Below are positions 775-27,041 of a stretch of DNA of 32,000 nucleotides, in pieces (the stretch's first letter is position 1; each line of letters opens with the position of its first letter). Source of the DNA: Opitutales bacterium. Its GTDB lineage: Bacteria; Verrucomicrobiota; Verrucomicrobiia; Opitutales; PNEW01. The position numbers and the translations under genes were made by a program. The notes below the pieces were generated by a model, which made no database searches, was not told the origin of the DNA, and worked only from the letters and a program-made list of their open reading frames with translations. The DNA lies in contig CBDCNV010000001.1 in the NCBI GenBank assembly GCA_965219535.1, positions 1,890,001-1,922,000 on the forward strand, in the 5' to 3' direction.

Positions 775-1671
775 TCAGGCTACTTTTATTCCCAGTTCAT
801 CCAAGGTGTGATCGAGGATTTTCTGATTAGATGCAGACATTGCGAAAAGAGGAAGTCGTACTTCGGGTGATCGAATAATACCCGCTTGAGCACAAGCGGA
901 CTTTATAGGAACAGGGCTCGTTTCTATAAATAAATTTTTAAATAGTGGATATAGTTTAATATGCAGTTCAGTCGCTTGAGTGTAATCATTATCGAGGGCG
1001 GCATGAACCATTCTCATTAAACCACCTGGGTCGAGATTTGAAGCCACGCTAATGACTCCTTTTGCGCCCACTGACATAAAGGGTAAAGTTAAACTATCAT
1101 CCCCACTGATTACTGTAATATCATTTCCCATTGCGTTGATCAATTGGCAAACACGATCACAAGACCCTCCGGCTTCTTTTATCGTGTTGACGTGCGGATA
1201 TTGCGCGCGGAGACGTTCAACGGTATCGATGGCGATTTCTATTCCGCAACGAGAGGGGATGGAATAAAGGACAATTGGCTTATCCGTAATTTCGGCAATC
1301 GCCCCGAAATGCCGGAATAATCCCTCCTGACTTGGCTTATTATAATAAGGCGCAACCTGGAGAAACCCATCGGCGCCAGCTTCATCAGCTTTCTTCGTAT
1401 AATCCACGGCTTCTTCTGTCGAGTTGGCTCCGGTTCCTGTAATTACCGGAACTCGACCAGCAGAGATCTCAACACAATAGCGAATCACTTCAATATGCTC
1501 TTCTGGTTTTAGGGTAGGTGATTCCCCGGTGGTCCCAACGGGAATTATACCATCAATTCCCTCCTTGATCTGATACTCAACCAGTTTCTCCAGGTCCTCA
1601 TAGCAAACATTTCCCTTAAAAAAGGGTGTGATGAGAGCCGTGTAAACCCCGGAAATAGATGTTGAGTTCAT
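775..1671 (-). CDS. dapA: 4-hydroxy-tetrahydrodipicolinate synthase
   Basis: 298-aa ORF. Motifs VGTTGES, APYYNKPSQEG and the Schiff-base lysine context IKEAGG. Typical DapA length. Confidence 0.93.
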   Translation of the reverse strand: MNSTSISGVYTALITPFFKGNVCYEDLEKLVEYQIKEGIDGIIPVGTTGESPTLKPEEHIEVIRYCVEISAGRVPVITGTGANSTEEAVDYTKKADEAGADGFLQVAPYYNKPSQEGLFRHFGAIAEITDKPIVLYSIPSRCGIEIAIDTVERLRAQYPHVNTIKEAGGSCDRVCQLINAMGNDITVISGDDSLTLPFMSVGAKGVISVASNLDPGGLMRMVHAALDNDYTQATELHIKLYPLFKNLFIETSPVPIKSACAQAGIIRSPEVRLPLFAMSASNQKILDHTLDELGIKVA

Positions 1672-1807
1672 ACTAATATTGGTTTAAATTATAGATTATG
1701 GTTAAAAATCAATAATTAGAGAAGAGAGAAATAATAATAATGTATTAAAAATTTTTTCACCTTAGTTTGTAAATCTAATAATTAATTTATTCATCATTTA
1801 ATAGAAG
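1672..1807. promoter_or_regulatory. Divergent, extremely AT-rich intergenic region (dapA / pilT-like)
   Basis: 136 bp between two divergently oriented start codons, so it should hold both promoters. No specific -35/-10 pair could be called with confidence. Confidence 0.3.
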
Positions 1808-2914
1808 ATGTCAGAATCAATCGATACTTTTAACAGCCTATTAACTCTCGCTGTGGAAAATGGTGCAAGCGACATTCATATCAAGAGTGACAAAGCTGCC
1901 ATGCTCCGTCTCAATGGAGGTCTTCAATCTGTAGATATGGACCCTCTTACCGGGGAAATGGTAAGCGACTTTATAGAGACGACTTGCCCCGAGCAGTTTA
2001 TTGAGAACTGGCATGATGATAACCAAATCGACTATTCCTATAGTCTGGACAGTCTGGGGCGATTTCGCGTCAACGGGTTCTATCAGCGTGGGACCATCAG
2101 TATGGTATTTCGCCACATCAAAGATCGCCCGCCGACATTTGAAGAACTCAATTTCGAATCGGAAACGCTTGTTCAACTTTGCCATCATAAGGAAGGGATC
2201 ATCCTGGTTTGTGGTGCTACCGGTTCAGGTAAAAGCTCGTGCTTAGCTTGCATGTTGAACTGGATTAATCATAACATGGATAAGCATATCGTGACATTGG
2301 AGGATCCGATTGAATTTGCTTACACTGATGTCAAAAGTGTATTTAACCAACGCGAAGTGGGGATTGATTCACCGAGTTTTGAGCTTGGGATGAAAGCGGT
2401 CCTGCGCCAGGACCCGGACATTATACTTATCGGGGAGTTACGTGATCATGATACCTTCGCGACCGCGCTAGCCGCGGCGGAGACTGGGCACCTTGTATTT
2501 GGAACGCTTCACTCAGCAAATGCTCAGCAAGCAGTTCAGCGCTTATTTGAATTTTTTCCTGCTGACCAACAGGAAAATATGCGACGGCAAATTGCCGGTG
2601 CGTTAAAGGCGACTGTTTCACAACGCCTGGTTCCAGACTTGGATGGCCAGGGGAGGGTCCCAGCCCAGGAGATTTTTGTCGTCGATTCCATGGGTCGCAG
2701 AGTCATTGAGGAGGGTGAATATGAAAAAATTAGTTCGGTAATCGATTCTGGTAGTAAAGAATCCGGTTCAAAGTCCTTTAATGCGGATCTCTATCGTCTA
2801 ATCAAAGCGGGGATGATTAGCAAAGAAGACGGCTTGGCTTTTTCACCTAATGCGAAGGCTCTGGAGATGAACCTTAAAGGGATATTCCTCAGTACTGGCG
2901 GTCTCGTAGGTTGA
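1808..2914 (+). CDS. pilT: PilT/PilU-family secretion-type (type IV pilus retraction-like) hexameric ATPase
   Basis: 368-aa ORF. Walker A CGATGSGKSS, Walker B/Asp box DPDIILIGELRD and His box ETGHLVFGTLHS. N-terminal GASDIHI motif typical of PilT-like ATPases. Confidence 0.8.
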   Translation: MSESIDTFNSLLTLAVENGASDIHIKSDKAAMLRLNGGLQSVDMDPLTGEMVSDFIETTCPEQFIENWHDDNQIDYSYSLDSLGRFRVNGFYQRGTISMVFRHIKDRPPTFEELNFESETLVQLCHHKEGIILVCGATGSGKSSCLACMLNWINHNMDKHIVTLEDPIEFAYTDVKSVFNQREVGIDSPSFELGMKAVLRQDPDIILIGELRDHDTFATALAAAETGHLVFGTLHSANAQQAVQRLFEFFPADQQENMRRQIAGALKATVSQRLVPDLDGQGRVPAQEIFVVDSMGRRVIEEGEYEKISSVIDSGSKESGSKSFNADLYRLIKAGMISKEDGLAFSPNAKALEMNLKGIFLSTGGLVG

Positions 2915-2935
2915 AGTCTATTCCTGTTTAACGTT

Positions 2936-3898
2936 ATGTCTTACATTAAAAGGTTAAATTTGCCTTTATGGATTTTGGCAATGTGCCTTTTCTGGGTATT
3001 ATCGCTCTATGCAAATGGCAATGGAGATCGTGAATTCCTTAAGAATTCGAGAGCAGAATTAAAACGACTCGATGATATATCGCAGCAAAAGAATAAAATC
3101 GATGATCCAAAAGGAACGATTAATTCTGGATTAGATTTATCATATGTGCCACCCAGTCGTGGAGGGCACTCGGTTACGGCTATACCTCAAAAATCTGAAG
3201 AGGAAGAGAGAGCTGAAGAAGAAGAAAAGAATTGGCTGCTATATGGAATGGAGAAGCTCTCCGGAATAAAGCTTCTTACTGAAGACGAAAAAAAACGGTT
3301 ACTTGAGCCAGGAAGCGGGTTGCGCTTGATCGATCGCTACGTTTTAGCAGAGGAAATGGCGGGTATTAAAACTGAAAGTCAAGGGATTGAAGAAAATGAT
3401 GATTATTCAGATTCAATTTCTGATTTTAATTCTTTGAATCCATTAAATAACCTTAGTGATTTAAGTGTCCTGAATCTGTATCATTCTGATAACACCCAGA
3501 ATATTTTAATGTTAACATCCCCTTTAGGTGACTTCACCCCATCAGCTTCTCTCTTCGAGGGTGAAACAAGCTACAAGAAACCCATTGTCACGCTATACAA
3601 TGGGACTGATCATTTGCAGCAATTGGGCAATTCACGGTTAAACTCCCATATTGGATCATCGTCTGAAGTAATAAATCCTTATTTAAATAATCAGGAGATA
3701 ACTGTAACTACGACGTTTAATTTACCAAAAGCAGATAAAAATCCAATTTCTGTCAATAGCAACTTTAAGACCCGCAGTTTTAATAATTCAGATAATATTT
3801 TAATTAAACCGGTGGAAATTAATACTCCTAAAGACCGAACTTACCAGCCAGCTGAAGACAAATTAAAGAAATATCTCCCGCAATTGGATTCATTTTGA
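2936..3898 (+). CDS. Hypothetical membrane-anchored or secreted low-complexity protein
   Basis: 320-aa ORF starting 21 nt after the pilT-like stop. N-terminal hydrophobic segment LPLWILAMCLFWVLSLYA, acidic run SEEEERAEEEEK, and an Asn/Ser-rich C-terminal half. No recognisable domain. Confidence 0.5.
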   Translation: MSYIKRLNLPLWILAMCLFWVLSLYANGNGDREFLKNSRAELKRLDDISQQKNKIDDPKGTINSGLDLSYVPPSRGGHSVTAIPQKSEEEERAEEEEKNWLLYGMEKLSGIKLLTEDEKKRLLEPGSGLRLIDRYVLAEEMAGIKTESQGIEENDDYSDSISDFNSLNPLNNLSDLSVLNLYHSDNTQNILMLTSPLGDFTPSASLFEGETSYKKPIVTLYNGTDHLQQLGNSRLNSHIGSSSEVINPYLNNQEITVTTTFNLPKADKNPISVNSNFKTRSFNNSDNILIKPVEINTPKDRTYQPAEDKLKKYLPQLDSF

Positions 3899-3967
3899 TT
3901 GCGGCGTCGGCTTTCTAAACTTACCGGTTGATCTTTTCAGTAGGGCGATTATTACTTCAGACCAAAT

Positions 3968-4873
3968 ATGGCAATAGGTCTATTGTTTTCTGGGCAGGGT
4001 GCTCAAAAAGTCGGAATGGGAGCGGATCTGTATGAAAACTCAGGATTAGCTCGCAATCTTTATGCTACGGCTAATGAAATACTCGGTTGGGATCTGGCTA
4101 CGATCTCTTTTGAGGGACCGGAAGAATTACTTATGGAGACGAAAATATGCCAACCAGCACTATTTGTTTGTGGCTATGCTATTCATTCCATTTTGCGCGA
4201 AACCGGAAGCATCGATCAGATTGATGTCGTTTTGGGACTCAGCCTCGGTGAGCTAACCGCTCACGCCGTTGCCGGTACTTTTGGTTTCACCGACGGCCTG
4301 AAAATTGTGGCTGAACGTGCAAGTCTGATGCAAATGGCCTGTGAAATTACCGATGGGACGATGGCTAGCTTGATTGGCGGTAATAAATCATCCATCTTAG
4401 AACTCTGTGATAAATTTGATGTAGAAATTGCGAATCATAACAGCCCTGAACAGACGGTTATTTCAGGAGGCGTAAAGGAAATCGAGGCAGCTGTTGCAGC
4501 AGCCAAAAATGGCGACTTTCGCATGGTTGTACCACTAAAAGTGGGAGGCGCCTATCATAGCCGATTAATGGAACCTGCGCGCAAAGAATTCGAAACTTTT
4601 TTAGCGGATTTCACATTTAATAATCCATCAATAAAAGTATTGTCTAATATCACGGGATGTGAAGTGGGCAGTGTGGATGAAATAAAGCGATTATTAGTTG
4701 ATCAAATAGTTTCTCCAGTACGTTGGATTGATTGTATGCACTATGCGGCTGCTCAAGGTGTCACTGAATTCTATGAATGTGGACCGGGAAAAGTTCTGAC
4801 TGGATTAGCACGACGTATAGATAGATCTTGGAAGGTATCCAGCCAATGCGAGTTCTCTGGTATGACATTATAG
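3968..4873 (+). CDS. fabD: Malonyl-CoA:ACP transacylase
   Basis: 301-aa ORF. N-terminal FSGQGAQ motif, nucleophile elbow GLSLGE, GGAYHS motif and GPGKVL near the C-terminus. Confidence 0.92.
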   Translation: MAIGLLFSGQGAQKVGMGADLYENSGLARNLYATANEILGWDLATISFEGPEELLMETKICQPALFVCGYAIHSILRETGSIDQIDVVLGLSLGELTAHAVAGTFGFTDGLKIVAERASLMQMACEITDGTMASLIGGNKSSILELCDKFDVEIANHNSPEQTVISGGVKEIEAAVAAAKNGDFRMVVPLKVGGAYHSRLMEPARKEFETFLADFTFNNPSIKVLSNITGCEVGSVDEIKRLLVDQIVSPVRWIDCMHYAAAQGVTEFYECGPGKVLTGLARRIDRSWKVSSQCEFSGMTL

Positions 4874-4890: not shown

Positions 4891-4967
4891 TAAATTCGCA
4901 GGATAATCGATTTGTTAATGTAATTCTGATTCATTTGGATACTTTCTGATATGGAAAATCTTTATTA

Positions 4968-6767
4968 ATGGATAACTCAAAAGAGATTCGAAATTTTTGT
5001 ATAATTGCTCATATTGATCATGGTAAAACTACGTTTTCAGATCGTCTCCTGGAATTGACTCAATCTGTTGAGCTGCGCGAGATGAGAGAACAGGTTCTTG
5101 ATTCCATGGATCTTGAACGTGAGCGAGGCATTACGATTAAAAGCCATCCGGTTACAATGACCCATCAGGGAAGAGACGGTAATGAGTATTGCTTGAATCT
5201 TATTGATACTCCAGGCCATGTCGATTTCTCATATGAAGTGTCGCGCAGTCTAACCGCCTGTGAAGGAGCAGTCCTACTGGTAGATGCCGCTCAGGGAATC
5301 GAGGCTCAAACCGTAGCGAACGCAAATTTGGCAATGAGCCAGGATATGGTGGTTATTCCTGTGATTAATAAAATTGATCTAAATAGTGCAGATGTAGCTG
5401 GAGTGCAGCATCAACTTGAAGAAATACTCGCCATCCCAGCGGATGAGGCCTTGCTCGCTAGCGCTAAGAATGGCATGGGAATTGAGGATGTCCTCGATGC
5501 AGTGATCTCGCGCGTGCCCGCACCACGTTGGGTTGACTACCCTGAAGATCGTATCCTCATTTTTGATAGTGTTTATGATAGTTATAAAGGAGTGATTTGC
5601 TATGTACGTGTATTTTCAGGTTCTTTAAAAGCTGGAGATGCAATCCTTTTGATGAGTGACGGAGCTAAGGCCGAAGTGAAGGAAGTAGGTTGGTTTTCTC
5701 CTGATATGAAAGTAAGTGACGAGCTGAATGCCGGTAGTGTTGGTTACATCGTTACAAATATTAAAGACGTAGCAGAGATAAAATTAGGGGATACTATCAC
5801 TAAATTAAATCATCCAGCTGCAGAAATGCTGCCCGGTTATAAAGAAGTGCGCCCCATGGTATTTAGTGGTATTTATCCTCTGGATACAGTTGATTATGAG
5901 AAATTAAAGGCAAGTATCGGCAAATTGCGTCTCAACGATTCAGCCATTGTCTACCAGCTGGAAAATTCGACTGCACTGGGATTTGGTTTTCGTTGCGGGT
6001 TTCTCGGGCTACTTCATATGGAAATTGTCATGGAACGGATTCGTCGTGAGTACGATCTCGATATAATTTCAACTTATCCGAGTGTAATTTATAAAATTAA
6101 AACGAGTAGTGGTGAAGAAATTGAAATTGAAAACCCTATAGCATTTCCCGATCCGACAGTAATCGAATCCATTTTAGAACCGACTATTCGCGCAACTATC
6201 CATACCCCAAAAGACTATATTGGTGATATATTGAAACTGATTATGGATAAGAGAGGTAACTGTGATCACACCGAATCACTTGATCAAAATCGACTCATCC
6301 TGCATTGCATATTACCATTAAATGAAATCCTGGTCGATTTTAATGATCGATTGAAAAGTATAACCCGAGGTTATGGTTCGATGGATTATGACTACGGTGA
6401 CTTTATCGAAGCTGACTTGGTCAAGCTTGACATCCTTGTTAATAGTGAACCGGTGGATGCTTTCTCATCGATTTGTCATCACAGTAAAGCTGAATCTAAG
6501 GGTAGGGTGATTTGTGATCGACTTAAAGAAATTATTCCACCTCAACTTTACAAGGTCGCTATTCAAGCGGCAATCGGTGGTAAAGTTATTGCTCGTGAGA
6601 CGCTTAAGGCAGTACGCAAAGACGTCACAGCTAAATGTTATGGCGGTGATATTTCACGTAAGCGCAAACTTCTGGAAAAACAGAAAGAGGGTAAAAAACG
6701 CATGAAGCAAGTGGGCAATGTCTCTATACCTCAGGATGCTTTTATTAAGGTATTAAAATCGAGCTGA
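4968..6767 (+). CDS. lepA: Translation elongation factor 4 (LepA)
   Basis: 599-aa ORF. GTPase motifs AHIDHGKTT, DTPGHVDF and NKIDL. LepA-specific basic C-terminus CYGGDISRKRKLLEKQKEGKKRMK. Confidence 0.97.
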   Translation: MDNSKEIRNFCIIAHIDHGKTTFSDRLLELTQSVELREMREQVLDSMDLERERGITIKSHPVTMTHQGRDGNEYCLNLIDTPGHVDFSYEVSRSLTACEGAVLLVDAAQGIEAQTVANANLAMSQDMVVIPVINKIDLNSADVAGVQHQLEEILAIPADEALLASAKNGMGIEDVLDAVISRVPAPRWVDYPEDRILIFDSVYDSYKGVICYVRVFSGSLKAGDAILLMSDGAKAEVKEVGWFSPDMKVSDELNAGSVGYIVTNIKDVAEIKLGDTITKLNHPAAEMLPGYKEVRPMVFSGIYPLDTVDYEKLKASIGKLRLNDSAIVYQLENSTALGFGFRCGFLGLLHMEIVMERIRREYDLDIISTYPSVIYKIKTSSGEEIEIENPIAFPDPTVIESILEPTIRATIHTPKDYIGDILKLIMDKRGNCDHTESLDQNRLILHCILPLNEILVDFNDRLKSITRGYGSMDYDYGDFIEADLVKLDILVNSEPVDAFSSICHHSKAESKGRVICDRLKEIIPPQLYKVAIQAAIGGKVIARETLKAVRKDVTAKCYGGDISRKRKLLEKQKEGKKRMKQVGNVSIPQDAFIKVLKSS

Positions 6768-6782
6768 AAAATATATTAGCTG

Positions 6783-8069
6783 ATGAGTAAAAAATCTGGT
6801 TTTGAAAAAAAGCTCGTTAAGAATGCGGAATACTGGCTTCGGTTAGCTGATAAAGTATACCATTACCGCTGCGACCTTCTTAATGAAAATCAAATTGATT
6901 CACTGCAAAAAGCGACACATGAATTAGAGCAATTAACAAATCAGCAAGCGATTGAAACAAAAAATATTCAGCAAGCGATTGATAAAATCAAAAAAGTTCT
7001 CAGTAAGTGTGCGGGTAGTTTTTATCCTCGAAGCAGCTGGGCGGAAAATGTGGAAACCTTTCTTGTCGTTGCTATTCTCGCTATCGGGATTCGCACCTTT
7101 TTCTTTCAACCTTTTAAAATACCCACCAATTCAATGTATCCCACTTACAACGGGATGACCTATGAAATATATCATGACGAAGAGGCGAAACCAAATAAGG
7201 CATCTCAAATAGGGCGTTGGATTCTCTTTGGCGCAAAGTATTATGAGGTCAAAGCATCTGTTAGCGGTGAATTGCTTTTGCCTCTTTTCAGCCAAGGTGA
7301 ATTAGGTGAAAGTTATGGCTATTTTAAGAATGAGCGTGTCAGGGGACGTCAATGGGGGATTTCTCGCAGCTCAAAACGTAAATACACAATGTACTTAGGC
7401 AAAGTTGCCACGGGCTTAACAGTACCGGCAGATTTTTCTTTATACAAAGTTCTCCACGATAGATTTGCTCCAGAAACGGATAGCGTAGTGGATTGGCTCA
7501 CCCGCAGAAATAATAATCAAGGCATTATCTATGAATCAGGGATCCCTCTACTAAAAACAGGTGTTTACTTTGAAAAAGGTGATACCGTGCTTGCCTTTGA
7601 TATTCTCACCGGTGACGCCCTATTTGTTGATCGATTTAGTTACAATTTCATCCAGCCTGATATTGGAGACCCTTTTGTTTTTCGCACTCGGAATATAAAT
7701 GAACTAACCCGTATGAATGGAGGAGTGCCAGACGATAAATACTATATTAAACGTCTAGTAGGAAGGGGGGCCGATGAACTTGAAATAAAGGAACCTGTCC
7801 TTTTTAGGAATGGCCTGCCGATTGAGGGAGTAAAAGTCTTTACCAAGAATGCTAACCGAGAAGATGAATACGAGGGTTATACTAATGTGCGGCGACTGAG
7901 CGAAGATTCTGTAGAATCCATCCCATCAAATCACTTCTATGCGATGGGTGATAATTCAGATGAAAGTTCTGATAGCCGCTATTTCGGCTATGTTCCTGAA
8001 GCGGAAGTCGTTGGTAAAGCTATATTTATCTATTATCCTTTTTCTAAAAATTGGGGTTTAGCTAAATAA
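6783..8069 (+). CDS. lepB: Signal peptidase I (S26 family), unusually long form
   Basis: 428-aa ORF 15 nt after lepA. Catalytic Ser box PTNSMYPT, Lys box YIKRLVG and GDNSDESSDSRYFG box. One TM segment (FLVVAILAIGIRTFFF) follows an N-terminal extension of about 85 aa. Confidence 0.9.
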   Translation: MSKKSGFEKKLVKNAEYWLRLADKVYHYRCDLLNENQIDSLQKATHELEQLTNQQAIETKNIQQAIDKIKKVLSKCAGSFYPRSSWAENVETFLVVAILAIGIRTFFFQPFKIPTNSMYPTYNGMTYEIYHDEEAKPNKASQIGRWILFGAKYYEVKASVSGELLLPLFSQGELGESYGYFKNERVRGRQWGISRSSKRKYTMYLGKVATGLTVPADFSLYKVLHDRFAPETDSVVDWLTRRNNNQGIIYESGIPLLKTGVYFEKGDTVLAFDILTGDALFVDRFSYNFIQPDIGDPFVFRTRNINELTRMNGGVPDDKYYIKRLVGRGADELEIKEPVLFRNGLPIEGVKVFTKNANREDEYEGYTNVRRLSEDSVESIPSNHFYAMGDNSDESSDSRYFGYVPEAEVVGKAIFIYYPFSKNWGLAK

Positions 8070-8187
8070 TAAGCTAATATTAGCTATTCTTGTATCGATT
8101 TTTAACTGCATTACGATATTCGCACAATATATATTATGTCTAATTCTAAATAAAGGTGAATTAGATCAACCTATCTATTAGTAATAA

Positions 8188-9756
8188 GTGAAATCCTCTA
8201 CCCTATTACCGTGGTTAAAAAAAAGAGGTGCGGGTGTCTTACTTCATCCGACCTCTTTTCCCGGCGATACCGGGATCGGTACTTTCGGTGTAGACGCAAT
8301 TAACTTTATAGAATTTCTGCGAGTCAGCGGAATTTCTTATTGGCAACTCTGTTCTCTAGGACCAACAGGGTATGGGGACTCACCTTATCAATGCTTTTCT
8401 GCCTTTGCCGGTAATCCTTATCTCATTGACTTAGACTCCCTCATTCCACATGGCTTCTTAAAATCTAACGACATAAATGACTTACGACAACTACCTGAAG
8501 ATAAAGTTAATTATGGCCGACAGTATTATCTTCGATGGCCTGTCTTGCGATTGGCATTTAAACGTTTTTGGAGCAATGGAGCTTCAGTATCAGAATATGG
8601 AAATTATAATAAATTTAAAAAAGAGAATGCAGAATGGCTCTATCCTTTTGCCTGTTTTATGGCTCTAAAAGGCCATTTCAAAGGACATTCCTGGGTCGAT
8701 TGGGGTCCATCCTATTGTTCCTATGAAAAAGCAAAAAATAGTGATCTTGTAAAAAAGATTGTGGAGAAAATTGAAGCCCATCTTTTTTTTCAGTATCTGT
8801 TTTTTGGCCAATGGGGACAGTTAAAGAAATTTGCTAATCAAAATGGCATTCAAGTAATTGGTGATCTTCCACTCTATGTGTCTTTAGATAGTGCGGATGT
8901 CTGGGCTCAACCAGAATTATTCAAGCTCGATAAGATGCATCGCCCTACTTCAGTAGCGGGTGTTCCACCTGATTACTTTTCACCCACCGGACAGTTATGG
9001 GGCAATCCACTCTATAACTGGAATTACTTAAAATCTAACGCCTATTCATGGTGGATGGATCGGTTAAGACACAACTTTAAGCTCTATGATATCGTTCGAC
9101 TGGATCATTTCCGCGGATTCGAATCTTATTGGGAAGTCCCGATTGGTGATAAAGATGCGCGAAAAGGAAAATGGACCCGAGGACCCGGAATCAATTTTTT
9201 TACTCAACTAAAAAAGCAGCTTCCCAAAGCACAGATAATTGCGGAAGATTTAGGTATTATTACACCCAAGGCGAGAGAGTTACTCGCAAAAACTGGCCTT
9301 CCGGGGATGTGTGTATTACAATTTGCTTTTGAAGATAATGATGCGAATAATTTGTACTTACCGCATAATGTAAATGCGAACAGTGTATTTTATCCTGGCA
9401 CACATGATAATGATACAATCTGGGGATGGTATCGCTCCTCTTCTAAGGAAGTTAAGCATCGAGTCCGTCAGTATCTTGGCGTCCCGGGTGATGATATTGC
9501 ATGGGATATTGTGCGAGCGTCATATTCAACGGTCAGCCGAATTGCGGTTATACCGATGCAAGACTTACTAAATTTAGGAACAAAATCGCGCATGAACACC
9601 CCGGGCCGTACATTCGGAAACTGGCAATGGCGCTATACGCGTGAAGCCATTAGTAATTTACGGCAGAATAGCGCAAGCTACCTCAAGGAACTCGGTGCTA
9701 TATATGGAAGGGTACAGGTATCCCCCTCAATTCCTAAGAAGAAAATCTCGAATTAA
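8188..9756 (+). CDS. malQ: 4-alpha-glucanotransferase (amylomaltase, GH77)
   Basis: 522-aa ORF with a GTG start. Motifs GAGVLLHPTSFPG, VRLDHFRGF, IAEDLG and PGTHDNDT are typical of MalQ. Confidence 0.9.
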   Translation: MKSSTLLPWLKKRGAGVLLHPTSFPGDTGIGTFGVDAINFIEFLRVSGISYWQLCSLGPTGYGDSPYQCFSAFAGNPYLIDLDSLIPHGFLKSNDINDLRQLPEDKVNYGRQYYLRWPVLRLAFKRFWSNGASVSEYGNYNKFKKENAEWLYPFACFMALKGHFKGHSWVDWGPSYCSYEKAKNSDLVKKIVEKIEAHLFFQYLFFGQWGQLKKFANQNGIQVIGDLPLYVSLDSADVWAQPELFKLDKMHRPTSVAGVPPDYFSPTGQLWGNPLYNWNYLKSNAYSWWMDRLRHNFKLYDIVRLDHFRGFESYWEVPIGDKDARKGKWTRGPGINFFTQLKKQLPKAQIIAEDLGIITPKARELLAKTGLPGMCVLQFAFEDNDANNLYLPHNVNANSVFYPGTHDNDTIWGWYRSSSKEVKHRVRQYLGVPGDDIAWDIVRASYSTVSRIAVIPMQDLLNLGTKSRMNTPGRTFGNWQWRYTREAISNLRQNSASYLKELGAIYGRVQVSPSIPKKKISN

Positions 9757-10605
9757 GATCAGAATTTTTTCTCCGCCATCTTCCAAGACATAGTGGCCTC
9801 CATCCGAAAATTTATGTACTTCCGCGGTTGGGTAAGACTTCATCCAGGTTTCTAAAAAATGATCATTAAAGCAGAAATCCTGTTCACCCCAACAGATGAG
9901 AACCTGGTTTTTTTGAAATTCCTGAAGACTGTTTTCAATCTCCTGCATTAAAGGATAACTATTATCTTTTGGCCTCATTGGGATATCCTGGACAAAGCGC
10001 AACTGCGCAATTCGGCTACTCCAATTATGGTAAGGAAAGAGAAAACCTTCTCGAACTTTCCCTTTGAGCCCTCCTTTTTTCGCGGTAGCCATGGTTAATG
10101 CATAGCGAGCAAAAACATTAAATGCGCGGATTAGCACGGCACCTAAGATTGGTGTTCGACACAACTTAATACGTAAAGGAAGTTGCTGCGACAAAAAGGC
10201 TGCGGTGTTTAGAATTATTATTTTCCCTACTCTATCTGGCATATTTTTCGCCAGTCCCATTCCAATTGCGCCACCCCAATCATGGATAACAAGATGAAAA
10301 CGCTTGATGTTTAATTTGCTTACCAGTTGCTCTACATTTGCGATATGCGTTGAAAGACGGTAAGGATAAATCTGAGGTTTACTTGAAAGTCCGCAGCCCA
10401 TGTGATCGGGTGCAACACAACGAAATTGATCACGGAGCTTTAAGACTAAATTACGATAATAAAAAGACCAAGTCGGGTTGCCGTGTAACATCAACACTAC
10501 CTCCCCTTCCCCTTCATCGAGGTAATGCAAACTATTTTCTTTTATACCCAGATAGTGACTATCAAATGGATAAAGGGGATAAAGTGTTTTATTAATTGTA
10601 AGCAT
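9727..10605 (-). CDS. Alpha/beta-fold hydrolase of the haloalkane-dehalogenase / OleB-like type (Asp nucleophile)
   Basis: 292-aa ORF. H41-G-N-P-T-W oxyanion/halide motif, nucleophile elbow VIHD109WGG, acid candidate WGEQD243F and H271 in GGHYV. Last gene of the minus-strand cassette. Its 3' end overlaps malQ by 30 nt. Confidence 0.8.
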   Translation of the reverse strand: MLTINKTLYPLYPFDSHYLGIKENSLHYLDEGEGEVVLMLHGNPTWSFYYRNLVLKLRDQFRCVAPDHMGCGLSSKPQIYPYRLSTHIANVEQLVSKLNIKRFHLVIHDWGGAIGMGLAKNMPDRVGKIIILNTAAFLSQQLPLRIKLCRTPILGAVLIRAFNVFARYALTMATAKKGGLKGKVREGFLFPYHNWSSRIAQLRFVQDIPMRPKDNSYPLMQEIENSLQEFQKNQVLICWGEQDFCFNDHFLETWMKSYPTAEVHKFSDGGHYVLEDGGEKILILIRDFLLRN

Positions 10606-10612
10606 TTAATCA

Positions 10613-11647
10613 TTAAATCGACAATGCCATCATCATGCAGCTAATACCGCTTCCTATACCTAACAATGCGGTATTAGAACCTGATTTCATCAAGCCCTCT
10701 TCTTTTGCCATCGCAAGTGTTAATGGCAGCGATACTGATCCCATATTTCCAAGGAAGCTGAATGTTGAATAGTCTTTATCCAAATCCAACTTAAGGGCAT
10801 TGTAGAGTTGACGTTGGTGAGCTCGGCCAACTTGGTGACAGATAATATGGTCTGGAGTTGATTCATTCCAGAGCGTCTCAGTCTTAAATTTATTCCAAGC
10901 ACGTTCAGCTACTCCTATACCTGCAATGAGAAGCTCTTCTGAATTTGTCTGCATTGCTAACCCTTCTTCAGCTGCAGTATCACCTTCACATAATTCGCTA
11001 TGATTGGTATCAGTTTCGACAATGGCATTTAATATTCTCGGGCAATTCTCATGAGCGAGCGAGGTATGACAAAGAATGAATGCTACCGCTCCTGCACCAA
11101 TAGTGAGATTAGCGAAATAAGGTTTAATTGAATTACGATTCAACTGTGGATTAAGCAAAAGCTTTAATGTGCTTTCAACTAGCGGCCGGCCATTTTCGCC
11201 CGCCACTATCATTGCTCTGCGAATTTGTTTATTCTGGATTAGACTGCCCGCGAGACTCATTGCGTTGAGAAAACCCAGGCAGGCATTAGATACATCAAAA
11301 GTCTGAGTATTTCCACTTAGACCGAGGTGGTGATGGACATAGGATGCGCTCGCAGGTTCCAATCGATCACGACAGACTGCCGCATGAATGAGTAAATCAA
11401 TCTCGTCTTTTTTAATCTGAGATTCAGATAATACTTTTTCTCCAGCTAAAGCACTGGCCTCAGATGGTAAAATAGGGCTGTCCCAGAATCGTCTTTCCTT
11501 AATTCCCGTCATCAATTCGAGGCGACCATGGGGAAGCCGTAAGCGCTCATAAAGGGAACCTAATTTAATTTCGATATCTTCTGAACTCCAGCTTTCGGGG
11601 GGGAGCTCGTAAGCCATCGCTTCGATGCATACGTCTTCGAATCGCAT
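10613..11647 (-). CDS. KAS III-fold thiolase (FabH/OleA-like condensing enzyme)
   Basis: 344-aa ORF. C123 in FDVSNACLGF, H271 in ICHQVG and N301 in FLGNMGSVSLP, plus E97 in CRDRLEPASAS. Lies 7 nt upstream of the hydrolase gene. Confidence 0.8.
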   Translation of the reverse strand: MRFEDVCIEAMAYELPPESWSSEDIEIKLGSLYERLRLPHGRLELMTGIKERRFWDSPILPSEASALAGEKVLSESQIKKDEIDLLIHAAVCRDRLEPASASYVHHHLGLSGNTQTFDVSNACLGFLNAMSLAGSLIQNKQIRRAMIVAGENGRPLVESTLKLLLNPQLNRNSIKPYFANLTIGAGAVAFILCHTSLAHENCPRILNAIVETDTNHSELCEGDTAAEEGLAMQTNSEELLIAGIGVAERAWNKFKTETLWNESTPDHIICHQVGRAHQRQLYNALKLDLDKDYSTFSFLGNMGSVSLPLTLAMAKEEGLMKSGSNTALLGIGSGISCMMMALSI

Positions 11648-11653
11648 CTCTAT

Positions 11654-12460
11654 CTATTTGGGCGGTCGCATGGATAGCTCAACCACTTCGCGATCAAAAT
11701 AGTTTAAGTCCATGCCCGCATTGACCACGATTCCTTGTCCATTTATTCCACTCGCACGTTCACTCAATAAAAATACTGCTGTATCTGAAACCTCCTTCGT
11801 TTCAACTGCTCGTTTACGAAAAGTGAGTTTTTCCGCATAAAGGTAATTTTCCAGATATCCTGGTATTCCAGCTGAAGCACTTGTTTTCAAGGGTGCCGCA
11901 TTCACAGTATTAAAGCGAATAGCTGTATTTTTGCTAAATGACTTTGCGAGATTACGAACACAACCTTCCAAGGCGGATTTAATCGGAGACATATAACCGT
12001 AGTTTTCCGCAGTTACTAAGTCTGAAGAAATACCTATTGAGACCACAGATGCTTGTTCTGTAAGCAGCGGTTTCATTGCACGGACAATTTCAACAAGGGA
12101 AAAAGCTGAAATTGTTGTAGCTTGTAAAAAGTCCTCGCGCTTGGTCTCGTGAAAAGGCTTAAAGCCTTCTGTGTAATTAGCAAAGGCGATAGAATGAACT
12201 ATTCCATCAAGGGAGCTTGTTATCGCCTCTATTTCTTTCGCTAAAAGATCAATCTGTTCTTGATCTTCAACATCGCATGTTAATACGGATTTATCTTTAA
12301 GCAGCTTGGATAATGATTTTTTACGATTTTCAGTACGAACGCTGTAAATAACTTTCGCCCCTTCCTTTTCAAGGGTATTGGCAATACACCACGCAACGCT
12401 TTTCTTGTTCGCAACACCGAATACGAGAAAAGTCTTATTTTCGATTTCGAGAAAACTCAT
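11654..12460 (-). CDS. fabI: FabI-type enoyl-ACP reductase-like SDR
   Basis: 268-aa ORF. FabI-style N-terminus FGVANKKSVAWCIA in place of the classical TGxxxGxG. Tyr-x6-Lys in YGYMSPIKSALE. Lies 6 nt upstream of the KAS III-like gene. It may be a paralogue rather than the housekeeping fabI. Confidence 0.75.
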   Translation of the reverse strand: MSFLEIENKTFLVFGVANKKSVAWCIANTLEKEGAKVIYSVRTENRKKSLSKLLKDKSVLTCDVEDQEQIDLLAKEIEAITSSLDGIVHSIAFANYTEGFKPFHETKREDFLQATTISAFSLVEIVRAMKPLLTEQASVVSIGISSDLVTAENYGYMSPIKSALEGCVRNLAKSFSKNTAIRFNTVNAAPLKTSASAGIPGYLENYLYAEKLTFRKRAVETKEVSDTAVFLLSERASGINGQGIVVNAGMDLNYFDREVVELSMRPPK

Positions 12461-12546
12461 TCTACATTAGTTTATTAAGAGCGAAGATTGGCACTAACAA
12501 GTGTCACTAAACAGACCATCCACTAAACGGGATAAAACCACACCTC

Positions 12547-12999
12547 TTACCCAATCAAAGCAAGGGCAAAATCAATGCTTAGGACAAGCTTATCCTTTGA
12601 TCTAATAGTCCCTCGCATAAAATGAAATTTGCTCAATGTTTCTTTGAATACGACTTCAGTCGTAATTTTATCACCGGGCCGCACCATATTTTTAAATTTA
12701 GCTTCTTTTATACGCGATAAAATTGGCGTATGATCTTTCAACGAATCATCACCTTGGCTTAATTTATTTTTCAAATAGATAGCTCCTGTCTGAAACACTG
12801 ACTCGCAGAGTAATACGCCGGGCATTAGTGGATTTCCAGGATAATGGCCTTCAAAATAGAATTCATTTTCGCGTATTTCTCTCGTCGTTGTAATTGTCTC
12901 ATCCGTGATATTAACTATCTCGTCGACAAAAAGAAACGGCGGTCGATGGGGGATGCTTTGGTATATTTCCTTCACGAATGATAAGATGATTCGCAACAC
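12547..12999 (-). CDS. fabZ: FabZ-type hotdog-fold 3-hydroxyacyl-ACP dehydratase-like protein
   Basis: 150-aa ORF with a GTG start at 12999. Motifs PHRPPFLFVDEI and FEGHYPGNPLMPGVLLCES carry the catalytic His and Glu context of FabZ. It may be a paralogue. Confidence 0.7.
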   Translation of the reverse strand: MLRIILSFVKEIYQSIPHRPPFLFVDEIVNITDETITTTREIRENEFYFEGHYPGNPLMPGVLLCESVFQTGAIYLKNKLSQGDDSLKDHTPILSRIKEAKFKNMVRPGDKITTEVVFKETLSKFHFMRGTIRSKDKLVLSIDFALALIG

Positions 13000-13049
13000 T
13001 TTGCAGTAATTAACTGCATAGATTGAGGGCTGCTATAAGCGATGAAACT

Positions 13050-14525
13050 TTAAATGCTTAGGGATGACTTTTGAAATCCCTTATTCACGCTTTTTTTAAA
13101 ATCACTAAGGTATTTATCAATTTTATGTGAAGTAATGACTCCGTAGTTAATAGTTCCTAACCATCCCGACATAATTATCCCTACGGATCCTGCATGGTAA
13201 AGTCCTTTTAGATTCTTGGGAAGATCCATAGATACCTTAAGTCCCTCGAATTTAGTTCCGAATGAAGTCCCTCCCATATGCTTCGTATAATGGTTTATCG
13301 TGCGAGGAGTAGCAGCTTCGATGTGATCTAGTTTGCTTCTAATATCCGGAATAAGCTTTTCCAGAGTGCTTAAAGACTCTTCGATAATGCGGTTCTTCTC
13401 CCGCTTGTAATCTTCTTCCGAGAGCGTGCTCCAATCTTCCCAATTACTGTTTAGTGAACAAACAATACTATATCTAGGTTCTTTGAGATGAGGGCGTGTA
13501 TCTGGATAGTAAAGTGAAAAGGTACGGCTGGAAGTGTGCATATCAACCAGTTCTTCACTCGTAAAATTCTTTGCATCTGAGGTAAATACGAGGTCGCCAA
13601 TAAAGGGGATCTTTTCCCCCTTTTTTACCCCTAAATACACTTGGCAGGAACTTGAATTGATGCGTATTTTATCAGCTTCTTCGACAAAATTTTTGGGGAA
13701 ATTTTCAGGGCCGACCAGTCGTTGAACAGTGTTTTTAATATTGGCATTTGAAAGAATGGCTTTGCAGCGAATCTGTCGGCCATTTACTTTGACTCCCGTA
13801 ATTCGTCTCGTGTTTTCATCTTCAGTAGTGATTATTTTATCCACGAGGCAGCATTTTCGGAGATGAACACCGTTTTTTTCCATTTCTTTTACCATCTTTT
13901 TAATCAAGATATCGGTGCCGCCTCTAAATGTATATACTCCCTTGTTCATGAAGTTAGAAAAAACAATGCCGTAGGTGATAGCTGGATCGTCGAGGGAAGA
14001 ACCATTGGCATAAGCAATGGGCTCCATTAATAGTCGTTTGATATCATCCCGCCCGGGAAAAAACTCTTCGAATAATTCACCCGTCGTTTGTTTTATTTCA
14101 TCATAGAAGTTCATCTTCTTCATATGATTAAAGAAACCTTCTACTTTATCTCTCGCCACTTTGAATCTATCCACAAAAAGACGCGTAAAATCACCTCGAT
14201 CGAATGTCGTCCAAACATTAAATTGCGGATTGATGAAACGCACATTCTTCAATTGAACAATGGAATCGGCAATCTCCTTGGTCCAATATTTCCGGCAAGA
14301 TTTAATCATGCCAATTGGAAAACCATGAAGGGAAATATCAAAAATATGCCCTCCCCTACGGCGAAACCATGTCGCTAGACCACCATATTGATAGTGGTGC
14401 TCTAAAAGCAGCACTGAATGACCACACTTGGCCAGGTAGTTGGCACCCGTTAATCCACCTAATCCACTGCCAATGACAATGACGTCATAATAATCCGAAA
14501 CATCTTTTAACCAATCTCTTGCCAT
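13050..14525 (-). CDS. FAD-dependent oxidoreductase, phytoene-desaturase (CrtI) / amine-oxidase-like
   Basis: 491-aa ORF. N-terminal Rossmann motif [36 protein letters not shown], and a length typical of the CrtI/CrtISO/retinol-saturase-like family. First gene of the cassette. Confidence 0.7.
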
Positions 14526-14723: not shown

Positions 14724-15989
14724 TCAGAAAAAGCGAATTATTATGAAAATAATCCCGAAAGAAATGAAATAAACCAGGCCCAGAATGCTGATTATTCTCA
14801 TTCCCCTGCCCGGTCTAAATTCCTCGGGTGTAAACGGAGATGTAATGAGGCGATAATTGAGGAACGCAAAAACAGGCCCCGCAAGAAATGCAATGGTTGT
14901 AGCCAGATCTACTAATGCAGTCAAACGCTCCAGAAAAGAATTTATAATAATTAAGCTGATCAGGCACCCTATTCCGACCCACACCCATTGTAAGTGACGA
15001 CTGCTCAAGTTTAATTTTTTATAAACCAATTTTAACCCTACAGCCAGGGAACGTGGGTAAGCGTCAATTACCGTCAATGAGGTTGAAAACATCGCGGTAA
15101 AAGCGGCGATTGCGATTACTGGAGTCGCCCACTCCCCCAGGTAATGAGTGTAAAGCTTAACTATTTGCGTGGCAAATTTTGTCCCTGATCTTTCAAGTTC
15201 TACTCCGGATCCGTAAAAAACGAGGTATCCCAACATTAGAAACATAATCGCGAGAACAACAGTAAGGGAAAACCCGAAATTAAAATCAAACATGGCTTCT
15301 TTCAATGATGTTTTTCTCCCCTTTGATTTCTCATTTGCCAAAATCCATAGCGATTGCCACACGGATAACTCAATCGGTGCCGGCATCCAGCCCATAAGGG
15401 CGATGATAAACCCCATATTAGCCATGCTCCAGGCTGATGGCCCTTTATAATCCATTTCTGCGACTGGTCCATGAGCCAGGGCCACGATGAATGCCATCAC
15501 CGTAGCAATAAAAAGGAGCGCCATGATAGCTTTTATACAATAATCTAACCATTTATAGTGCCCGACGATAATTATTGCTGCACAAATCCCCATCAATCCG
15601 ACGCTGTAGACCGTTTCGCTAAAATTTATATCCAATAGATTATGCGCTAATCCAGCGGTTACAAAAGTTACAGCTGCAATACTGATGATGGCACTGATGA
15701 AATTTAAGAATAAGAAGGCATAGAGATAACCTAGCCCCAATCGGCGGTAACCGTGCATGAGACTTTCTCCTGTTGCCACCGCATAGCGATGTCCATATTC
15801 AAAAAAAGGATATTTAAAACAATTAACGAGGAGGATAACAATTATCAATTGCGTGCCATAATTGGCTCCTGCTCTCGTTGATTGAACAAGATGTGATACG
15901 CCAATAGCTGCTCCGGCCATCAGCAATCCAGGTCCTATTGCTTTTCCTAGTTTATATCTAGAAGATTCATTATCCATATAGATGGACAA
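14724..15989 (-). CDS. NRAMP-family-like polytopic membrane transporter (divergent)
   Basis: 421-aa ORF, highly hydrophobic with multiple TM segments. GPGLLMAG(A)AIG motif near the N-terminus and GWMPAP mid-protein resemble NRAMP TM1/TM6 motifs. The track start is TTG; the ATG at 15977 (MDNESS...) is a more likely start. Confidence 0.6.
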   Translation of the reverse strand: MSIYMDNESSRYKLGKAIGPGLLMAGAAIGVSHLVQSTRAGANYGTQLIIVILLVNCFKYPFFEYGHRYAVATGESLMHGYRRLGLGYLYAFLFLNFISAIISIAAVTFVTAGLAHNLLDINFSETVYSVGLMGICAAIIIVGHYKWLDYCIKAIMALLFIATVMAFIVALAHGPVAEMDYKGPSAWSMANMGFIIALMGWMPAPIELSVWQSLWILANEKSKGRKTSLKEAMFDFNFGFSLTVVLAIMFLMLGYLVFYGSGVELERSGTKFATQIVKLYTHYLGEWATPVIAIAAFTAMFSTSLTVIDAYPRSLAVGLKLVYKKLNLSSRHLQWVWVGIGCLISLIIINSFLERLTALVDLATTIAFLAGPVFAFLNYRLITSPFTPEEFRPGRGMRIISILGLVYFISFGIIFIIIRFF

Positions 15990-25788: not shown

Positions 25789-26082
25789 ATGAAAAGAAAA
25801 AGATACACAACAGAACAGATTATAACAATATTGCGGCAAGCCGATACCGGTAAAACGGTACAGGAAATCTGCCGTGGAAACAACCTGAGCGAACAGACTT
25901 TCTATCGCTGGCGTAAAAAATATGGCAATTTAGAACTTGCCGATGCGAAGCGATTTAAAGAGCTGGAAAAAGAATTCACGAGCGCAAGCGAGAAGGCCTG
26001 ACATACCGAGCTGAAGAAGCTGCTCGCAGATCAAATGCTCAAGAATCAGGTAATGGAGGAAACGCTGTCAAAAAAATGGTGA
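25789..26082 (+). pseudogene. IS3 orfA (HTH transposase N-terminal protein) interrupted by in-frame TGA
   Basis: The frame is continuous from ATG 25789 to TGA 26080-26082 except for a TGA at 25999-26001. HTH region EQIITILRQADTGKTVQEICRGNNLSEQTFYRWRKKYG, then leucine-zipper-like LKKLLADQMLKNQVMEETLSKKW after the stop. Confidence 0.75.
26070..26076 (+). promoter_or_regulatory. Programmed -1 ribosomal frameshift heptamer A_AAA_AAA
   Basis: The A7 run is in the correct phase (tcA AAA AAA tgg tga in the orfA frame). The -1 frame continues directly into orfB (ATG at 26076). Confidence 0.7.
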
Positions 26083-27041
26083 GCCCAAAGCAGAAGAAAC
26101 GAGTAGTAAAAGCTGCGGCTGAGAAAGGGTTGTGCTCGTTGCGGAGGGCTTGTGCTTATCTCAGCCTGAGTTGGTCAACGTTCAGTTACCGGCCCAAACA
26201 GGCCAGTGAGAAAGCTCAGCGGTTGGTCGAGCGGATTGTGAGCTTGTCCTGGAAACATCCCCGCTACGGTTACCGGCGCATCCGTGCCTTGCTGGTAAAG
26301 GAAGGCTGGACAACAAGCAGGAAGTTTGTCCAGGCGGTACGACGTTCAGAAGGGCTGCAGGTAAAGCCCCCGAAAAAGGGCAGACACCGTCAAGGAGTCT
26401 CTACGGGGTCACCTACTAAAGCAAAGGGTCGCAATCACGTTTGGTCCTGGGACTTTGTCCATGATCGTACAGACAACGGCGGTCCATTAAAGATGATGAC
26501 TCTAATCGATGTACCGAGGAGCTGAAAGCGACGACACTCAAGCGAAGCGAAGACATATACGCGTAAATGCCTGGATATCCGGGTCGCTCGTCAACTCACC
26601 TCAACCGATGTCCTCTCTGTGCTTAGCGAGGCCATTGAAGAGGAGGGACCTCCCAGCTATATCCGTAGTGACAACGGCAGTGAGTTCATTGCTCATCAAG
26701 TGCAGCAGTGGTTGTCCGGTAATAACATAAAGGCGATCTATATCGATCCGGGCAGTCCCTGGCAAAACGGTTTCATCGAGTCGTTTCACAACCGCTTACG
26801 CGATGAGTGTTTGAACCGTGAAGTGTTGCTCAGCGTGGCTGAAGCGCAAGTGGTAATCGAACAATGGCGTCAGACCTATAACCATGAACATCCCCACAGT
26901 CGTTTAGGCTTCAAAAGCCCACAAGAGTTTGTCAGATTCCTTTCCGATCTTGGCCGCGTTCGGGCTACGCCCTCACTTCGCCAAGATCTCTCATATACAT
27001 CAATCCTAAAACCATTAACACCCGGTAACTCTCTCACTTAA
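26076..27041 (+). pseudogene. IS3 orfB (DDE/rve integrase-core transposase) interrupted by in-frame TGA
   Basis: A single frame from 26076 to TAA 27039-27041 with one TGA at 26523-26525. DDE context is preserved: HVWSWDFV, YIRSDNGSEF, PWQNGFIESFHNRLRDE. The C-terminal YNHEHPHSRLGFKSP is typical of the IS3 family. Confidence 0.8.

Follow-up and report, generated by a model that had tools for sequence, protein, structure and literature searches.

An oleA-oleB cassette of Opitutia and an ole-associated module of discrete fatty-acid-synthase-like enzymes in at least three phyla

What do the olefin genes oleA and oleB do when they are packed together with a CrtI-like flavoprotein gene and two genes resembling fabZ and fabI, with no oleC or oleD beside them? 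This question is raised by a 32,000-nucleotide stretch of the genome of an Opitutales bacterium (Verrucomicrobiota; GenBank assembly GCA_965219535.1, contig CBDCNV010000001.1, positions 1,890,001 to 1,922,000 of the forward strand), which we refer to in its full length as the window. Five minus-strand open reading frames (ORFs) occupy positions 9727-14525 and are parted, in order of increasing position, by 7, 6, 86 and 50 nucleotides (nt) in the ORF list, the same ORFs and gaps that a preliminary description of the window had given. Among the hydrocarbons of bacterial membranes, head-to-head olefins are abundant and are candidates for biofuels, and the polyunsaturated ones have so far been explained only via the Pfa megasynthase. 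We consider it fairly probable that this cassette is one half of a split and extended ole system, in which a module resembling a fatty acid synthase (FAS) would supply or tailor unsaturated chains for OleA.

To assign the genes, we scanned all window ORFs of at least 100 amino acids (aa) against Pfam and NCBIfam profiles and aligned the cassette proteins to their solved relatives; both upheld the five family assignments made earlier. Judged by its sequence, the protein with the fold of a beta-ketoacyl-ACP synthase III (KAS III; ACP, acyl carrier protein) is a true OleA (thiolase superfamily, EC 2.3.3.20), predicted to carry out the non-decarboxylative Claisen condensation of two long acyl-CoAs. 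It scored 418.8 bits against the NCBIfam model NF006720/PRK09258 (cut-off 285) and, among solved structures, 198.6 bits against the Xanthomonas campestris OleA 3ROW and 64.8 bits against the best FabH. Its catalytic residues E97, C123, H271 and N301 align with E117, C143, H285 and N315 of the X. campestris enzyme and are invariant in the Opitutia OleA orthologues aligned (14 of 14). E97 is the OleA-specific glutamate base, and the pattern EPxx[AS]x(14,18)DxxNACL (PMC7158056) can be read in the window sequence. The protein is 36-55% identical to the oleA products of metagenomic oleABCD clusters. A housekeeping FabH is ruled out by the OleA-specific residues and the score gap (199 versus at most 65 bits), which bears out the earlier view that the enzyme has OleA-like residues. 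KAS III enzymes of the DarB/StlD, CorB and PqsD types were also considered and gave weak matches (at most 45 bits, or E value about 1e-5).

The hydrolase encoded by the last gene of the cassette is an orthologue of the OleB of canonical clusters and a predicted beta-lactone decarboxylase. It matched Abhydrolase_1 (Pfam, 93 bits), and its top NCBIfam models were haloalkane dehalogenases, all under their cut-offs. Among solved structures it aligned best with 8CKP/8OOH (149 bits), followed by haloalkane dehalogenases at about 100 bits; its nucleophile motif HDWG (D109) and C-terminal H271 align with 8CKP. In more than 40 metagenomic oleABCD clusters, oleA and oleC flank a hydrolase gene whose product is 41-49% identical to the window protein.

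The three remaining proteins form a trio made up of a flavoprotein (FAD, after its flavin adenine dinucleotide cofactor), a hotdog-fold dehydratase (HOT/DH) and a short-chain dehydrogenase/reductase of the enoyl reductase type (SDR/ER). The flavoprotein is, by its sequence and modelled fold, a remote member of the CrtI/CRTISO/RetSat family. It carries the Pfam domains Amino_oxidase and NAD_binding_8 and a GSGLGG FAD-binding Rossmann motif; its best NCBIfam model is carotenoid isomerase TIGR02730 (120 bits, cut-off 587), and it scored 81 bits against crtI_fam TIGR02734 (cut-off 238). In a Foldseek search, its AlphaFold (AF2) model (pLDDT 82.9) matched the carotenoid desaturase 4REP best (TM 0.72, E value 1e-23), followed by CrtI 4DGK and PDS 5MOG. 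Orthologues are labelled "all-trans-retinol 13,14-reductase" or "phytoene dehydrogenase-like" in JGI, and the ORF family scan found no carotenoid genes (crtB/crtE context) in the window. The SDR scored 201 bits against adh_short_C2 (Pfam), and its top NCBIfam matches were all FabI models, the best at 191.8 bits with cut-offs of 299-477. Its nearest solved relatives are Firmicute FabI enzymes (Staphylococcus aureus FabI 6TBB, 142 bits), and its Y-x6-K motif is conserved (NYGYMSPIK aligned with NYNVMGVAK of 6TBB). The hotdog protein matched FabA (Pfam, 82 bits) and fell under both FabZ equivalog cut-offs (106.6 versus 113 and 102.7 versus 155 bits); its catalytic histidine (FEGHYPG) and glutamate (LCESVFQ) align with Escherichia coli FabZ 6N3P, and the Pfam matches on its orthologues include ApeI-like and ApeP-like. 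RefSeq and JGI name the orthologues of the two proteins "enoyl-ACP reductase FabI" and "FabZ" or "FabZ family".

The family scan found no ACP, KAS I/II, FabG, OleC or OleD in the window. We agree with the preliminary description that this layout is unlike canonical type II FAS (FAS-II), oleABCD, DarABC and aryl-polyene arrangements. The oleABCD pathway of X. campestris, Shewanella oneidensis and Micrococcus luteus likewise has an OleA with the four catalytic residues and an OleB directly downstream; however, oleC and oleD are not at the window locus, and three extra genes are packed upstream of oleA. Three ole context types have been published, namely oleABCD, oleBC fusion and oleACD (PMC7064751), and the window arrangement is none of these. 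Surveys that require flanking oleBCD (PMC7158056) would discard the locus.

Each of the five proteins has hundreds of close homologues, the closest of which belong to Verrucomicrobiota, class Opitutia. We examined the 80 best genome loci, all from Opitutia; 59 had enough flank to label the genes around oleA. Conservation of the gene order in relatives had been put forward as a check on the cassette, and we found that 38 of the 59 loci keep all five genes in the window order, while HOT-SDR-OleA-OleB at least is present in 45 (the 38 included). Start/stop overlaps are common at the hotdog/SDR, SDR/OleA and OleA/OleB junctions; for example, the SDR and oleA ORFs overlap by 4 nt in several Opitutia genomes. 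Flavoprotein identity across Opitutia ranged from 66 to 99% among the matches listed. The gene order is kept while the flanks vary between lineages, which indicates that the cassette is a unit conserved as such. In Coraliomargarita akajimensis DSM 45221, for instance, the cassette, ADE54918-ADE54921, has a photolyase group on one side and a histidine kinase on the other. There, at positions 5282-8603 of the locus (L003), genes for a photolyase, a TIGR01777-family oxidoreductase and a 326-aa COG3380 flavoprotein lie directly upstream of hotdog-SDR-OleA-OleB with overlapping ORFs, in the place of the 491-aa CrtI-like gene. In that lineage, these neighbours hint at a co-regulation by light or oxidative stress. 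A photolyase-associated stress cluster was rejected as a description of the cassette, as the 326-aa flavoprotein is of a different family from the 491-aa one and the photolyase-group genes, not being conserved in other lineages, lie outside the cassette.

The trio acquires further partners within the class. In about 20 Opitutaceae loci, genes for a ketosynthase (KS), an ACP and a second CrtI-family flavoprotein (FAD2, about 22% identical to FAD) lie directly upstream of FAD-HOT-SDR-OleA-OleB. The KS is FabF-like (313 bits, cut-off 494) and the ACP is divergent (36 bits, cut-off 71). We also considered the epimerase encoded beside the Opitutaceae KS as a hidden OleD, and it is GalE (415 bits versus 51-63 for OleD). 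The window and most Opitutia loci outside Opitutaceae have only the FAD-DH-ER trio of what we define here as the module, namely KS, ACP, FAD2, FAD, HOT/DH and SDR/ER, with an optional ketoreductase (KR), phosphopantetheinyl transferase (PPTase) and radical S-adenosylmethionine (radical-SAM) enzyme.

The same module recurs outside Verrucomicrobiota. A search of cluster representatives with the hotdog protein led to planctomycete loci of the class Phycisphaerae (Table 1). In one of these, L086, the OleC-like protein scored 595 bits against NF045786 (olefin beta-lactone synthetase) and the OleD-like protein 398 bits against NF042422 (2-alkyl-3-oxoalkanoate reductase). Identities to the proteins of this locus are 63% for FAD, 55% for SDR and 45% for hotdog from the window, and 66% for KS, 67% for ACP and 52% for FAD2 from Opitutaceae. 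We then used the planctomycete OleC to scan metagenome contigs, which gave 80 loci, and in about 17 of these the module stands immediately after oleD. Contiguous runs of oleA-oleB-oleC-oleD-KS-ACP-FAD2-FAD-(FabG-like KR)-HOT-SDR include L098, L106, L113, L120 and L158, and the full-run contigs are placed in Nitrospirota via cluster mates (KS genes of L098, L106 and L158). The FAD-HOT-SDR order is identical in L085-L088, L120 and L158. The KS, ACP, DH and ER of the module all score under the housekeeping equivalog cut-offs. A discrete KS-ACP-flavoprotein-DH-ER module is thus a second recurrent partner of ole genes, in at least three phyla, and the split differs by phylum: Opitutaceae have the module with oleAB, Phycisphaerae have it with oleCD, and Nitrospirota have all of these together.

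Table 1. Genes of the cassette in the window and planctomycete loci carrying the trio or the larger module
Feature or locus	Positions	Strand	Length, gene content and remarks
OleB-type alpha/beta hydrolase (predicted beta-lactone decarboxylase)	9727-10605	-	292 aa; last gene of cassette
OleA (predicted acyl-CoA:acyl-CoA alkyltransferase, head-to-head Claisen condensing thiolase)	10613-11647	-	344 aa
FabI-like enoyl reductase (SDR/ER)	11654-12460	-	268 aa
FabZ-like hotdog dehydratase (HOT/DH)	12547-12999	-	150 aa; GTG start
CrtI/CRTISO/RetSat-family FAD flavoprotein (FAD)	13050-14525	-	491 aa; first gene of cassette
L086 (planctomycete)		same strand	OleC-like, OleD-like, KS, ACP, FAD2, FAD, hotdog, SDR, PPTase; most junctions overlap by 4-8 nt
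L088 (planctomycete)		same strand	OleC-like, OleD-like, KS, ACP, FAD2, FAD, hotdog, SDR; mostly 4-8-nt overlaps
L087 (planctomycete)			KS-ACP-FAD2-FAD-hotdog-SDR-PPTase
L085 (planctomycete)			FAD-hotdog-SDR alone; no ole gene near

Some of the metagenomic loci carry additional features. In L120, a 520-aa B12-binding/radical-SAM/DUF4070 protein is encoded at 5288-6850, between oleD and the module KS, and recalls the radical-SAM genes of anammox and Desulfotalea clusters; L137 has a 1.6-kb unannotated gap between oleD and KS that is of a size like the L120 insert. L120 also holds an 853-aa ORF (1630-4191) that joins an alpha/beta-hydrolase (OleB) and an AMP-binding (OleC) domain, an oleBC fusion outside Actinobacteria.

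Gene clusters of two kinds described in the literature resemble this module. The ole genes are frequently linked to clusters of the pfa type, which probably provide the precursors of the olefins (PMC3098273), and the tie between a synthase of the polyunsaturated fatty acid (PUFA) type and olefin production is already known (PMC3098273, PMC6463001). Verrucomicrobia are not listed among the pfa holders (PMC3098273). In at least 10 other oleABCD loci, we found a Pfa-type ORF of 1,800-2,400 aa immediately upstream of oleA. The pfa-ole clusters, which provide the hentriacontanonaene precursor, likewise place chain-building genes with KS, ACP, KR, DH and ER functions beside ole genes. The module differs from them in consisting of discrete type II proteins and not multidomain megasynthases, in having a DH that is FabZ-like and not FabA-like and an ER that is FabI-like and not PfaD/FabK-like, and in including one or two CrtI-family flavoproteins, which Pfa systems are without; that the module makes a polyunsaturated chain is proposed here.

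The second resemblance is to the FASII-like "ladderane/PUHC" clusters of Kuenenia stuttgartiensis and Desulfotalea psychrophila, which contain ACP, FabF paralogues, FabZ, phytoene-dehydrogenase-like flavoproteins and radical-SAM enzymes (Rattray 2009, PMC2649909). D. psychrophila makes C31:8/C31:9 hydrocarbons without pfa, and the flavoproteins were proposed to desaturate acyl chains (PMC2649909). Its cluster has two adjacent flavoprotein genes, like FAD2-FAD of the module, and the Nitrospirota-type module for its part includes a B12/radical-SAM gene and a FabG-like gene, whereas the window itself is without ACP, KS and radical-SAM genes. In comparison with the Kuenenia proteins, of which N-terminal fragments only were compared, we found 44-51% identity over the FAD-binding stretch and 30-33% for FabZ, which is similarity at the level of the family. 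The papers on these clusters predate or ignore ole genes, and a linkage to oleABCD is not reported in them (PMC2649909, PMC4790861). In a limited literature search, we found no statement that the module is physically linked to ole genes.

How might such a module and the Ole enzymes work together? The module is joined to oleAB, to oleCD or to all four depending on the phylum, it has its own ACP, KS, KR and PPTase, and in other ole clusters a Pfa synthase gene sits directly upstream of oleA; together these points argue for a functional tie between module and Ole enzymes and not for mere housekeeping fabZ and fabI genes. The FAD-DH-ER trio forms a fixed sub-unit of this conserved, ole-associated, ACP-dependent module of discrete type II enzymes, and from the tie to Ole we propose that the module builds or tailors (poly)unsaturated acyl chains on its ACP. 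We infer that this chemistry takes place on acyl-ACP before OleA because the DH, the ER and the flavoproteins travel with ACP, KS, KR and PPTase, and the Pfa gene upstream of oleA in other clusters suggests by analogy that the discrete module makes unsaturated chains for OleA. The flavoprotein may act as a desaturase or a trans-2/cis-3-type isomerase on acyl-ACP, while the DH and the ER may complete or skip reduction in each cycle. CrtI-family enzymes that act on fatty acyl chains include UfaD, a furan fatty acid desaturase, and the polyenoic fatty acid isomerase of Cutibacterium, which are a precedent for desaturation or isomerisation beside an existing double bond. The substrates of both are phospholipid-bound or free fatty acids, and neither is known to be tied to ACP, KS, DH, ER or ole genes. 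OleA would then join two activated fatty acyl chains, and OleA, OleD, OleC and OleB in turn would convert them into a long-chain, probably polyunsaturated, membrane olefin. For the organism of the window, we predict that oleC, oleD and probably also KS and ACP are encoded at another place in its genome, which is most likely given that the trio is contiguous with these genes in Planctomycetota and in Nitrospirota-type contigs. In agreement with this placement, oleC has been reported in Opitutaceae metagenome-assembled genomes (MAGs; PMC10176705), and "oleABCD" in MAGs of Opitutae (PMC5673642).

Several observations weigh against a split system of this kind. The absence of ACP, KAS I/II, FabG, OleC and OleD from the window, on which the preliminary description had insisted, was upheld by the ORF scan and again by tblastn, in which OleC, OleD, KS, ACP and PPTase references and E. 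coli AcpP had no match in the window. In 84 Opitutia loci, neither oleC nor oleD was found within 10 kb on either side of oleA; a search for the AMP-binding motif of OleC near oleA returned one unrelated 689-aa ligase in one locus. Outside Opitutaceae, KS-ACP-FAD2 was not seen beside the cassette in the Opitutia loci. Four of the 59 loci have OleA-OleB only, with the trio not nearby, and another five, from gut-associated Opitutales, have OleA alone, from which it follows that the linkage of oleA-oleB to the trio is strong and not obligatory. The anammox (Kuenenia) flavoproteins failed to complement CrtI, and their activity was not demonstrated (PMC4790861). Finally, lpxD lies one gene from the hotdog gene in 3 of the 80 Opitutia loci, a context typical of housekeeping fabZ. 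In the gut-associated loci with OleA alone (L024, L028, L031, L047 and L050; Candidatus Spyradenecus and others), an OleA orthologue (57-60% identity) is kept, OleB, hotdog, SDR and flavoprotein were not found within 10 kb of oleA, and oleA adjoins an ABC-transporter ATPase gene in L024, L028 and L031.

The lpxD context bears on the possibility that the locus is a scattered piece of FAS-II, with the hotdog protein and the SDR being the housekeeping dehydratase and enoyl reductase, co-operonic with oleA-oleB and perhaps coupling acyl-ACP supply to olefin formation, and with the flavoprotein unrelated. The FabZ and FabI catalytic motifs are intact, the orthologues carry the names FabI and FabZ in RefSeq and JGI, and fabD is 4.9 kb away in a synteny kept in several Opitutia. 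In three loci of one Opitutia lineage (L056, at 4905-9188, L072 and L075), the hotdog gene comes after skp, lpxD and prs, and this lpxD-fabZ-like neighbourhood is the best argument that the hotdog protein may double as FabZ. The ORF scan found no lpx gene in the window. We nevertheless think a scattered FAS-II locus unlikely. All FabI and FabZ equivalog scores are under cut-off, and in Planctomycetota and Nitrospirota the trio, whose start and stop codons overlap, stands in a run of genes that includes a KS, ACP, KR and PPTase of its own as well as oleC and oleD. FAD-HOT-SDR is also kept together where no ole gene is near (L085), and the flavoprotein, at 63% across phyla, is the most conserved member of the trio, which argues that it is not a passenger. 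The flavoprotein or flavoproteins could also act after the Ole enzymes, isomerising, saturating or further desaturating a finished C27-C31 olefin, as relatives do on C30-C40 carotenoid- or squalene-type substrates, and with the DH and the ER doing ordinary chain building. Consistent with this, the fold and family matches are carotenoid desaturase/isomerase and RetSat-type enzymes of long hydrophobic hydrocarbons, and linkage of the flavoprotein gene with ole genes recurs in three phyla. However, the place of the flavoprotein genes is always between those for ACP and DH, and the ORFs overlap or abut, which suggests a carrier-bound substrate, and the trio is also found without ole genes nearby; we judge such late tailoring improbable.

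A further reading, which develops the working hypothesis of the preliminary description, is a self-contained pathway without OleC, OleD, ACP or an elongating KS, in which the OleA product would be dehydrated, reduced and desaturated and then released or decarboxylated to a ketone or an unusual branched lipid. The tight packing and conservation of the five genes and the lack of OleC and OleD in the window and around oleA in Opitutia are what such a pathway would look like. Yet in Planctomycetota and Nitrospirota these genes form uninterrupted runs with oleC and oleD and with ACP and KS genes, and oleC has been reported in Opitutaceae MAGs (PMC10176705). The chemistry is also difficult: OleA releases a free beta-keto acid and the OleB substrate is made by OleC (PMC7158056), whereas FabZ- and FabI-type enzymes use thioesters, the dehydratase would be without a ketoreductase to make the beta-hydroxy group it needs, and the hydrolase is orthologous to the canonical OleB. 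We therefore regard an OleC/OleD-independent pathway as very unlikely. The order of steps proposed with it, from condensation through dehydration, reduction and desaturation to hydrolytic release, is likewise less likely, as the trio travels with ACP, KS, KR and PPTase and the hydrolase belongs with OleB.

If the cassette is instead half of a split ole system fed by the module, a more specific and more tentative possibility, which we would hold at rather less than even chances, is that the module makes up a "type-II PUFA synthase" that does not depend on Pfa. The part of FabA-type isomerase/dehydratase chemistry would be taken over by CrtI-family flavoenzymes, which would keep or insert double bonds on the ACP-bound chain, and the product would pass to OleABCD to give C31:9-type hydrocarbons in Verrucomicrobiota, Planctomycetota, Nitrospirota and probably Desulfotalea.

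Outside the cassette, the window is ordinary chromosome. It contains dapBA, pilT, fabD, lepA, lepB, malQ, an Nramp-like transporter, a response regulator and pal, as well as tpiA-pgk-gap, pullulanase, mnmA, IS3 fragments, obg, ahcY, metK and pckG. We detected no terminator-like site on the minus strand inside the cassette, and a promoter scan did not rise above shuffled background. The convergent malQ (8188-9756, plus strand) and the OleB-type gene share 30 nt at their 3' ends (9727-9756), with no terminator-like hairpin detected between them. An Nramp-like transporter gene with a TTG start and weak family scores (14724-15989) lies on the same strand 198 nt upstream of the cassette; it probably stands outside the system, as it is kept upstream of the cassette only in the closest relatives (L001 and L005). 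The fabD gene (3968-4873) lies alone at about 4.9 kb from the cassette, in line with the distance of about 5 kb noted earlier. A fabD-lepA-lepB(-malQ) block is found downstream of the cassette in L001, L005, L008, L040, L063, L074, L078, L081 and L082, with malQ not labelled in L040, L063, L078 and L081; the lone fabD keeps its distance of about 5 kb over long evolutionary distances, and the module is without an acyltransferase of its own. At 26076-27041, two neighbouring ORFs (149 and 140 aa) match positions 88-241 and 263-368 of NF033516 (IS3-family transposase) in what looks like a broken or frameshifted insertion sequence (IS) element, and the local GC content peaks there at 0.517 against about 0.40 in the surroundings. 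A search of a plasmid collection with the cassette flavoprotein found no homologue.

The main interest lies in the multi-phylum, ole-associated module that this locus exposes, more than in the locus itself. Surveys will get the number of olefin producers in the Planctomycetes-Verrucomicrobia-Chlamydiae (PVC) group wrong if they need oleBCD beside oleA or take oleC as their sole marker. The module may provide unsaturated olefin precursors by a route that does without Pfa. If it makes or modifies such precursors, it would bring new enzymology, in the form of carrier-bound desaturation or isomerisation by CrtI-type flavoproteins, and many "ladderane-like" clusters of unknown function would be re-labelled. 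Calls of "ladderane" biosynthetic gene clusters (BGCs) are frequent in Verrucomicrobia and unexplained (PMC7298704), and may well be the same clusters as the module described here. Should the module indeed prove to be a type-II PUFA synthase, it would explain "ladderane" BGC calls outside anammox bacteria and would answer how bacteria without pfa make such hydrocarbons, a question that has stood since 2009.

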